A DNA stretch of 12,344 nt from Zoogloeaceae bacterium (GTDB lineage Bacteria > Pseudomonadota > Gammaproteobacteria > Burkholderiales > Rhodocyclaceae). Positions 9,099 to 10,194 of the stretch are shown here, piece by piece. Under the pieces are notes generated by a model. The model did not search any database. It had not been told where the DNA came from and saw nothing but the letters and a program-made list of their open reading frames with translations. Made by a program: the position numbers and the translations under genes. Each line of letters begins with the position of its first letter. Positions within the stretch are counted from its first letter, which is position 1. The stretch is taken from positions 1-12,344 of the forward strand of contig JAITMP010000012.1 in NCBI GenBank assembly GCA_031277315.1. The letters are read 5' to 3'.

Positions 9099-9171
9099 TG
9101 GCTTTTGGAGCGGGATTCGAACCCGCAACAACAGTTATACAGACTGTCGCGCACCGCTGCGCCATCCAAAA
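9099..9171 (-). tRNA. tRNA-like gene, 73 nt with encoded CCA; cloverleaf with anticodon GUA (Tyr-like) but class I (4-nt variable loop), U1-A72, G73 and U37
   Basis: Hand-folded from the minus strand: UUUUGGA-UG-GCGC-AGCGGU-GCGC-G-ACAGU-CUGUAUA-ACUGU-UGUU-GCGGG-UUCGAAU-CCCGC-UCCAAAA-G-CCA. The T-loop UUCGAAU is canonical and all four stems pair perfectly. The anticodon loop differs from the bacterial tRNA-Tyr loop CUGUAAA only by A37U, yet it lacks the long variable arm and A73 of bacterial tRNA-Tyr. Confidence 0.5.
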
Positions 9172-9351
9172 CACTCTCGTTGGTTTTCGGGACCAAGAGA
9201 TTGCATCAACCAATTCCTGCTCGGCGGCATACGCGATCACGACGGAATTTTTCACTCCGGCAATGCGCACCGGCGTGGCGGGATTCCTCCCTAACCCCTG
9301 ACCTGTTAGCGTTGCATTCCTTGATTAATTCTTTACAGCCCGGCTTTACAA

Positions 9352-9915
9352 CTAGGCGTGCAAGCGGCTGTGCCTGGGCACACGTGCCATGAGAAATTCC
9401 ATCTGGCAACCCAGCACATTCCGGTTGGCGAGAATCAGCCACTCGAAACGGCTGGGACGATACGGCACATAGAGCAACGGCATATTTGCTTGCTCTGGCG
9501 TGCGGCAGCCTTTCTTCTGATTGCAATGCCGGCATGCCGTAACCCAGTTTTCCCAAGTATTTCCGCCGCCTTGGGCAACCGGGGCGATGTGTTCCACGGT
9601 AAGCTCTTGAAACTTGAACACCTCACCGCAGTAGGCGCACATGTTGCGATCACGCCGGAACAGGTACACGCGTTCCAGCGGGGCATAGCTGAAATCGCGC
9701 ACCAGAAAATCCTGGGTATCGACCACAAGTATGGACCTCACTTCCAGAATGGACTTCCTGCCAGTTCGCGCATTGACACCACCGCGCAAGACGGCCGCAA
9801 TATTGCCAAACGAAGCCTGCACCGCGCCGCGCCCATATAGACGCATGGCATCGGGCAGGCCGATCCAGCGGTCGGGCGTGTAAGCCCGATCCACGGCAAG
9901 GATGTTGGTTTCCAT
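9352..9915 (-). CDS. HNH endonuclease (zinc-knuckle HNH, CxxC...HNH...CxxC), 187 aa, embedded in the tRNA cluster
   Basis: C-terminal CAYCGEVFKFQELTVEHIAPVAQGGGNTWENWVTACRHCNQKKG is a textbook HNH motif with two CxxC pairs. Start ATG 9915 (METNIL...) has AGGAG 7 nt upstream. The ORF-track extension to 10083 overlaps the tRNA-His gene and is rejected. Confidence 0.75.
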   Translation of the reverse strand: METNILAVDRAYTPDRWIGLPDAMRLYGRGAVQASFGNIAAVLRGGVNARTGRKSILEVRSILVVDTQDFLVRDFSYAPLERVYLFRRDRNMCAYCGEVFKFQELTVEHIAPVAQGGGNTWENWVTACRHCNQKKGCRTPEQANMPLLYVPYRPSRFEWLILANRNVLGCQMEFLMARVPRHSRLHA

Positions 9916-10022
9916 AAATGGGCTCCTAAAATCAGATGAAAAATGGCCTTCACGGAAGGACTTGAACTCTCGATGTCGAGCCAAGCTGCGCGAAGGGAAA
10001 ATGCATTGCTTGCACGCTGCAT

Positions 10023-10098
10023 TGGGGTAGCCACTCGGAATCGAACCGAGATGACTGGCATCACAAACCAGGGCCTTAACCATTAGGCAATGGCCACC
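10023..10098 (-). tRNA. tRNA-His (anticodon GUG) with genomically encoded G-1 and CCA
   Basis: Minus strand: G(-1)-GUGGCCA-UU-GCCU-AAUGGUUA-AGGC-C-CUGGU-UUGUGAU-GCCAG-UCAU-CUCGG-UUCGAUU-CCGAG-UGGCUAC-C-CCA. The G-1:C73 pair plus GUG anticodon is the diagnostic tRNA-His signature. All stems pair, with one G.U in the acceptor stem. Confidence 0.8.
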
Positions 10099-10121
10099 CC
10101 GATGAAGCGTGTAAAAATCAT

Positions 10122-10194
10122 TGGCGCCGCGGGATGGACTCGAACCACCCTCTTCAGCTCTCTCAAGCTGACGCTCCCATCTGAGCTCCGCGGC
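10122..10194 (-). tRNA. tRNA-like gene, 73 nt with CCA; canonical acceptor, D- and T-arms but an anticodon arm that only folds as a 5-bp stem with 8-nt loop (UUGAGAGA) or 6-bp stem with 6-nt loop; probable pseudo-tRNA or non-standard tRNA
   Basis: Minus strand: GCCGCGG-A-GCUC-AGAUGG-GAGC-G-UCAGC-UUGAGAGA-GCUGA-AGAG-GGUGG-UUCGAGU-CCAUC-CCGCGGC-G-CCA. No 7-nt anticodon loop can be drawn. It lies 23 nt upstream of tRNA-His on the same strand. Confidence 0.4.

Follow-up and report, generated by a model that had tools for sequence, protein, structure and literature searches.

The RNA ligase RtcB joins 2',3'-cyclic-phosphate or 3'-phosphate ends to 5'-OH ends. A tRNA-like gene, the predicted 'band 7-associated tRNA' (hereafter b7a-tRNA), has been described beside genes for Band-7 proteins and RtcB, a prediction attributed to Burroughs & Aravind 2016 (bioRxiv 10.1101/312249). 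Long supernumerary tRNA arrays carry a conserved HNH gene and have rtcB nearby or co-regulated (PMC8421152). In Anabaena, translation inhibitors induce the tRNA array, the HNH gene all8564 and rtcB, and tRNA 'sponges' combined with RtcB repair have already been proposed for such arrays (PMC8421152). The repressor TrcR also represses the Anabaena trn array, and its deletion raises rtcB 77-fold, all8564 17-fold and the slipin gene alr0740 42-fold (PMC10272220). In Salmonella, the rtc operon is induced by tRNA halves (PMC7790460). Here we analyse a 12,344-bp stretch of DNA (the window), which is the entire contig JAITMP010000012.1 of a Zoogloeaceae metagenome-assembled genome. Its minus strand carries a co-oriented cluster of three tRNA-shaped genes, an HNH endonuclease gene, a Band-7 gene and rtcB. 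This locus joins the known b7a-tRNA/Band-7/RtcB kind, fused to a remnant tRNA array with HNH.

In the window and in ~80 relatives, the tRNA-like gene, the Band-7 gene and rtcB are co-oriented as in the predicted b7a-tRNA cluster. What is particular here is that the tRNA-like part appears to be the 5' domain of a ~330-nucleotide (nt) RNA, that its anticodon loop either varies strongly among loci or gives way to a tetraloop, and that a tRNA-array/HNH module lies upstream. With the L-arrays and TrcR regulon of Anabaena PCC 7120, the locus shares an HNH gene beside co-oriented tRNAs, an association with rtcB and with a slipin gene, the putative counterpart of the Band-7 gene, and a patchy, partly plasmid-borne distribution; the Anabaena parts, however, are scattered under a shared repressor, whereas those of the window are contiguous and include one intact and one degenerate tRNA. 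The physical link of supernumerary tRNA arrays, HNH, slipin and RtcB parallels the genetic regulon of Anabaena. A functional analogy may also be drawn with the rsr-yrlBA-rtcBA operon (Ro60, Y RNA, RtcR/sigma-54), which likewise joins an RNA ligase to a noncoding RNA that has a tRNA-like domain and to a protein partner forming a ring or cage. Unlike that operon, the window has no Ro60/TROVE gene, Rfam Y RNA match, rtcR, rtcA or sigma-54 promoter, and its tRNA-like domain lies at the 5' end of the RNA. Altogether, we consider it probable that the window contains the RNA-rich leading part of an RtcB RNA-repair island gained by horizontal transfer, in which a spare tRNA from an array remnant, resealing by RtcB, and a Band-7 oligomer with its cognate RNA as scaffold or cofactor would form a compact response to translational damage. 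The analysis itself establishes which genes are present, the homology and covariation of the RNA, and how the parts recur among the loci.

The genes follow one another on the minus strand in the order third tRNA-like gene, tRNA-His, HNH, 'Tyr-like' gene, Band-7 and rtcB (Table 1). ARAGORN called two tRNAs on this strand, a tRNA-Tyr(gta) at 9099-9171 and a tRNA-His(gtg) at 10023-10097, and the Rfam tRNA model matched them with 57.7 bits ('Tyr', 9171..9102) and 54.7 bits (E ~1e-10 each). The third element, at 10125-10194, received no ARAGORN call and scored 40.1 bits with the Rfam model (E 1e-5). The three tRNA-shaped elements at 9099-10194 are genuine, with scores far past chance. A first-pass annotation of the same DNA had read the two legible anticodons as GUG and GUA, and on both the anticodons and the coordinates the two programs agree with it exactly. 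It had also placed the tRNAs next to RtcB: they do belong to the same co-oriented cluster, but they are not adjacent to rtcB, the Band-7 gene lying between rtcB and the nearest tRNA-like gene. From the anticodons, it had proposed that these G34-U35 tRNAs serve as spare or decoy substrates for colicin E5-type anticodon nucleases, which target tRNA-Tyr, -His, -Asn and -Asp, with RtcB religating the products. There is some basis for this in the window, where both readable loops hold U33-G34-U35, and the end chemistry of RtcB matches colicin E5 cleavage products, which it could thus ligate.

We compared the window with 80 loci obtained by a genome scan with the Band-7 protein (mostly Burkholderiales, Band-7 69-76% identical), using ARAGORN and tblastn. 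In bacteria, tRNA-Tyr belongs to class II, the tRNAs whose variable arm is long, and the genuine tRNA-Tyr genes found in arrays of the relatives are 84-88 nt long. The 'Tyr-like' gene of the window measures 73 nt and has a 4-nt variable region, U37 and G73; its length, its variable region and the lack of a purine at position 37 rule it out as a bacterial tRNA-Tyr. Its counterparts are found elsewhere: a hidden Markov model (HMM) of the b7a tRNA-like gene matched in 77 of 81 loci, at a distance of 210-420 nt upstream of Band-7, and of the remaining four loci, two are contigs that end in that stretch. Judged from these matches, the tRNA-like genes upstream of Band-7 form one homologous family. 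Its D and T arms hardly vary (~0.35 bits of entropy per column), whereas positions 34-36 come near to randomness (1.62 bits). The 40 clean 7-nt loops hold 18 different triplets, GUA occurring in the window only, and 14 of these loops have a pyrimidine at position 37; in 19 of the 77 loci (Acidovorax and others), a GNRA tetraloop stands in place of the anticodon loop. Because the loop is hypervariable or tetraloop-replaced across loci, the GUA of the 'Tyr-like' gene is an accident of a non-decoding loop. The loop does read GUA as first annotated, yet what carries it is a b7a RNA and not a tyrosine tRNA. Metagenome scans for near-identical copies of the b7a RNA of the window found none.

These patterns are clear evidence that the b7a 'anticodon' is not used in decoding, and they caution against reading function from the software-assigned anticodon of a tRNA-like RNA. 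The confinement of GUA to the window, the 18 triplets, the pyrimidines at position 37 and the loops replaced by GNRA also speak against the E5 decoy proposal, and one of the two window loops with U33-G34-U35 belongs to a 'tRNA' that does not decode.

The conservation extends beyond the tRNA-like gene. Between it and the Band-7 start codon, 240-300 nt are strongly conserved among related loci. Across loci, the RNA consists of the tRNA-like domain, a GGUC-GNRA-GACC hairpin, a helix of variable length and a ~125-nt irregular hairpin with CAG/CUG closure; after it, an invariant UAACGGCAC-like block precedes the Shine-Dalgarno sequence by ~25-45 nt. In the window, the 3' domain, ~250 nt in length, has its GGUC-GCAA-GACC hairpin at 9067..9056, its helix at 9045..8983 and its long irregular hairpin at 8981..8859, together with a conserved CUGUAACGGCAC block. 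The GGUC-GNRA-GACC hairpin had a match in 78 of 88 fetched loci, and the loci without one include four distant Band-7 loci. RNAalifold, applied to 40 non-redundant sequences, yielded 62 pairs, 44 of which show compensatory double changes. In the 3' domain, 94% of cells were paired vs 36-45% when the partners were slid by 1-3 columns, and the covariation score was 0.40 vs 0.06-0.08 in the slid controls, a value reached by none of 500 shuffles. The window sequence folds alike (z = -4.8). A T-box-like 'specifier' pairing with the variable loop was also considered and set aside, as mutual information over all columns gave no complementary partner.

To follow this domain across genomes, we used a covariance model (R1). 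R1 found exactly one match, on the correct strand, per Band-7 locus of this clade (~84 related loci, e.g. L081:9760-9969), including 43 full-length and 2 end-truncated loci outside the training set (47-155 bits); the window scored 93.8 bits. No match was obtained in loci that have HNH or arrays but no Band-7, nor in the Burkholderia, Citrobacter, Photobacterium and Subdoligranulum Band-7 loci, also with filters off, so that the range of R1 covers Comamonadaceae/Sphaerotilaceae-type loci and the window only. In Rfam 15, no family matched the 3' domain at E values up to 5. The b7a-tRNA and the 3' domain are thus predicted to form one ~330-nt structured RNA running into the Band-7 ribosome-binding site, and an RNA of this kind with a non-decoding tRNA-like head is uncatalogued as far as we could check. 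The locus and its ~80 relatives therefore give a larger, covariation-supported RNA for study. As to what such an RNA might do, we offer one possibility tentatively and regard it as somewhat less likely than not. On this view, a two-domain b7a RNA of ~330 nt, with a diversifying or dispensable loop, may work as RNA subunit in a repair particle made of a stomatin cage and RtcB, a bacterial counterpart to Ro-Y RNA or vault particles, or else as a cis sensor that couples tRNA damage to Band-7-RtcB expression, and this core would have repeatedly captured mobile tRNA arrays in Burkholderiales.

The related loci share a common order, which starts with a co-oriented array of 0-20 tRNA genes and HNH, continues with a single tRNA-like gene and Band-7, and ends with RtcB, in some loci after an extra open reading frame (ORF); RtcB follows Band-7 in most of them. 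Upstream of HNH, the arrays of the relatives gave 272 ARAGORN calls of ~31 anticodon types, neighbouring genes being separated by a median of 12 nt. Of the 49 loci with an array, 29 have His-GUG, the commonest type, followed by Glu-UUC (25), Asp-GUC (24), Arg-ACG (23) and Leu-CAG (22), while Asn-GUU (8) and Tyr-GUA (3) were rare. The high rank of His and Asp would suit E5 decoys; nevertheless Glu-UUC, Arg-ACG and Leu-CAG are as frequent, the Tyr and Asn members of the E5 class are seldom present, and conservation of a G34-U35 anticodon was seen neither in the b7a loops nor in the 49 arrays. The third tRNA-like gene of the window has no anticodon to offer, and a Pfam scan of 13 window ORFs (the smallest ORFs not all covered) found no colicin E5 or E5-immunity family, the only toxin-related matches being HicB and MazE/AbrB-like. 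An E5-specific decoy role is therefore very improbable in our view. The broader part of the first-pass proposal, spare tRNAs working together with RtcB repair, fares better: it fits the co-oriented arrays of up to 20 tRNAs in relatives and the Anabaena papers, though for that same reason it is not new.

HNH and the arrays tend to occur together. Of 57 loci whose upstream sequence spans at least 4 kb, 32 have both, 17 have neither and 8 are discordant (Fisher p 1.5e-7). The window HNH is 41-47% identical to those of the related loci, as compared to 69-76% for Band-7 (medians 43% vs 72%), and it is closer (65-70%) to HNHs inside 33-37-gene arrays without a nearby Band-7, which are carried by an 816-kb Variovorax replicon and a compost-metagenome genome and are the closest homologues with readable surroundings. 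On the conjugative megaplasmid of Methylibium petroleiphilum PM1, an array of 27 genes precedes a homologue of 41% identity, and the nearest homologue (locus L089, 88% identity) lies on a 4.3-kb contig that ends just past the gene. Full-length homologues also occur in two jumbo phages; the Ralstonia jumbo-phage homologue has no tRNA within 5 kb. PADLOC and NCBIfam searches of the window returned only generic HNH-domain matches, below cut-off. By its similarities, the window HNH appears to belong with tRNA arrays rather than with the Band-7 core.

The same data invite a selfish reading, in which an HNH-array mobile module homes into tRNA-shaped DNA and the b7a gene is merely a suitable target, with no functional tie to repair. 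The co-variation of HNH and array, the greater divergence of HNH relative to Band-7, its proximity to the HNHs of stand-alone arrays and the 0 to 20 range of array sizes are all as such hitch-hiking would produce, and phage T4 offers a precedent in the homing endonuclease SegB, which prefers cutting within tRNA genes (as cited in PMC8421152). Yet in 37 of the 57 loci with sufficient upstream sequence, array and Band-7 share a strand, with the array upstream, rtcB recurs beside cyanobacterial arrays, and in Anabaena the array, HNH, rtcB and slipin, although unlinked, are still jointly de-repressed by TrcR deletion. On balance, we judge hitch-hiking without any repair function to be unlikely, while leaving it a real share of the probability.

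Two further observations were made on arrays. In some relatives, a PcfJ-like gene (PF14284) lies in or beside the tRNA array upstream of HNH (L081:7083-8231, L082:7732-8880), and it is absent from the window. In the Variovorax sequence LR594690.1 (L092), positions 11826-12344, a 172-amino-acid (aa) protein with a release-factor domain (PCRF/RF-1) and a SecB homologue are encoded just downstream of the 33-gene array with HNH.

The tRNA-His is the sole canonical-looking tRNA among the three tRNA-shaped genes of the window. Bacterial tRNA-His normally has a genome-encoded G-1, and here G-1 (position 10098) stands opposite C73 in a regular cloverleaf with GUG and an encoded CCA; judged by its sequence, it could be a working tRNA. 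It lies directly upstream of HNH, the same place as His in the arrays of the relatives, and it is probably all that is left intact of the tRNAs in a supernumerary array. The third gene combines an acceptor stem of 7 bp and normal D and T arms with G73 and an encoded CCA, but its anticodon arm folds into a 7-bp stem capped by a GAGA tetraloop, so that it lacks an anticodon. Its best matches, which are weak, are array tRNA-Phe genes of relatives (nhmmer E 8.5e-4). Together, tRNA-His, the third gene and HNH resemble what remains of a supernumerary tRNA array that was mobile. As a separate observation, ~20 of 30 array tRNA-His genes of the relatives (L001, L002, L005, L035 and ~16 other loci) have T or C at -1, hence no encoded G-1, and a five-C run before A at the 3' end; the window copy is canonical.

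A standard tRNA-His with all its identity features (G-1:C73, GUG, CCA) is also what a plain housekeeping tRNA locus, near rtcB by chance, would contain. The other two genes do not fit this view, since the 'Tyr' gene has U37 and no long variable arm and the third gene has no anticodon; moreover, relatives with a Band-7 that is 69-76% identical carry anything from 0 to 20 tRNAs at the same position, and the HNH-plus-array module is plasmid-borne elsewhere. The setting of the cluster further argues against it. GC content is 0.49-0.61 over ~6400-12100 vs 0.60-0.71 to the left, and this low-GC stretch is flanked by a metK C-terminal fragment (12114-12284, minus strand) on one side and the SAH (S-adenosylhomocysteine)-riboswitch-ahcY-metF genes on the other. 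It contains a plus-strand ORF (10994-11431) whose C-terminal domain is MazE/AbrB-like and a HicB-like ORF with an odd C-terminus (11648-12130, minus strand), near which no HicA was seen. Given the lower GC, the metK/ahcY flanks and the HicB-like and MazE/AbrB-like fragments, ~6400-12100 fits a horizontally acquired island. With the cluster lying inside a low-GC island that holds toxin-antitoxin remnants, we see hardly any room for the housekeeping explanation.

We therefore return to the RtcB RNA-repair island as the preferred reading. In it, the cluster would be made of two modules. The first would be the stump of a mobile tRNA array, namely the anticodon-less tRNA-like gene and tRNA-His(GUG) with the accompanying HNH; the second, a conserved core, would run from the ~330-nt structured RNA through the stomatin-like Band-7 gene to rtcB. 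Acting as a single stress- or damage-responsive unit, the cluster would supply extra tRNA from the array when translation is damaged, RtcB would reseal RNAs cut to 2',3'-cyclic-phosphate and 5'-OH ends, and the Band-7 oligomer with its cognate RNA might form a particle that serves as scaffold or cofactor, the analogy being Ro60 and its tRNA-like Y RNA YrlA. The general idea of spare tRNAs plus repair is plausible because the Anabaena array, HNH, rtcB and slipin are jointly de-repressed by deleting one repressor. If the reading is true, a single Burkholderiales cluster unites four kinds of gene (tRNA array, HNH, slipin and rtcB) that are found under TrcR at scattered cyanobacterial sites. Together with the larger RNA and the evidence on its loop, the physical link of these genes makes the idea of a dedicated response to translational or tRNA damage testable in cultured Burkholderiales.

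Several points weigh against this reading. L-arrays consist of many closely spaced co-oriented tRNAs, and the window has two such genes, one intact and one without an anticodon; its array is at most a remnant, a term that we take from the relatives. These relatives are themselves distant (Band-7 up to 77% and HNH up to 88% identical, no closer locus being found). The 3' domain could instead be a leader of the Band-7 mRNA, with a cis-regulatory role. A promoter scan of the cluster found no sigma-70 consensus and no more sigma-54 sites than expected by chance, and neither rtcR nor rtcA was found in the Pfam scan of window ORFs. The band 7-associated tRNA has been described as never experimentally validated (bioRxiv 10.1101/312249), and the role of Band-7 proteins and tRNA-like RNA in bacterial RNA repair is experimentally unexplored.

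Table 1. Coordinates of the cluster genes, RNA domains and terminator-like hairpins in the window
Feature	Position	Strand	Basis
Terminator-like hairpin with T-run, end of upstream transcript	10561..10597	-	GGCCCGG..GCAA..CCGGGCC TTTTTGTTTT, direct reading
tRNA-like gene without anticodon	10122..10194	-	Rfam tRNA 40.1 bits; fold
tRNA-His(GUG) gene	10023..10098	-	ARAGORN; Rfam 54.7 bits; cloverleaf fold
HNH endonuclease ORF, 187 aa	9352..9915	-	Pfam HNH/HNH_5 ~3e-16
b7a-tRNA, tRNA-like 5' domain of Band-7-associated RNA	9099..9171	-	Rfam tRNA 57.7 bits; homology
Structured 3' domain	8845..9098	-	Covariation; covariance model R1
Band-7/SPFH (slipin, stomatin-like) gene, 378 aa	7682..8818	-	Pfam Band_7 6.6e-28
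RtcB 3'-phosphate/5'-OH RNA ligase, 412 aa	6415..7653	-	Pfam RtcB 2e-128, full length
Intrinsic-terminator-like hairpin ending the cluster after rtcB	6380..6403	-	Hairpin scan

Since a terminator-like hairpin ends the upstream transcript, the promoter of the cluster is expected within 10195-10560. The Band-7 protein has more than 7800 homologues, is named 'slipin family protein' by NCBI and matches stomatin structures in the PDB with E values down to 7.6e-19; on reading its sequence, no N-terminal hydrophobic segment was visible. An AlphaFold model built on a shallow alignment had a mean pLDDT (predicted local distance difference test) of 48.8 and hence was not used for a fold search. The Band-7 gene ends 28 nt upstream of rtcB on the same strand, and exactly in this gap, between the Band-7 stop and the rtcB start, lies a near-perfect 16-bp hairpin (7648-7683, 10 G-C pairs, 4-nt loop), which may be a processing or translational-coupling signal.

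Band-7 neighbourhoods vary outside the window. Between or after Band-7 and RtcB, relatives have either a 254-aa ORF without a family match or a ClpP/NfeD-like serine protease (L081:11195-11959; L082:11216-12235), and in L082-L084 no RtcB is found within 10 kb downstream of Band-7. In the distant Citrobacter locus (L085:4546-4995), rtcR is divergently encoded, only a T-arm-like remnant of the tRNA-like element is left, and a nucleotidyltransferase gene follows the slipin gene. The Burkholderia Band-7 locus has a GNRA-looped tRNA-like element and a GNRA hairpin, and that of Photobacterium has two tandem tRNA-like elements. In both Citrobacter (L085) and Burkholderia cenocepacia (L086:4478-4760), reading by eye gave sigma-54-like TGGCACG-N4 sites ahead of the tRNA-like region, the Burkholderia site being TGGCACG-N4-TCGC.

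Directly downstream of the RtcB island, an SAH riboswitch (6134-6200, minus strand, Rfam 58 bits) precedes the genes for S-adenosylhomocysteine hydrolase (4643-6130) and methylenetetrahydrofolate reductase (MTHFR, 3811-4638); this riboswitch-ahcY-metF unit is an ordinary housekeeping operon. Further along, at 630-2915, a YebC/TACO1-family gene (minus strand, ~648-1346) is divergent from a HerA-like helicase gene (plus strand, ~1443-2915), and the long ORFs on both strands of this segment overlap merely through high GC.

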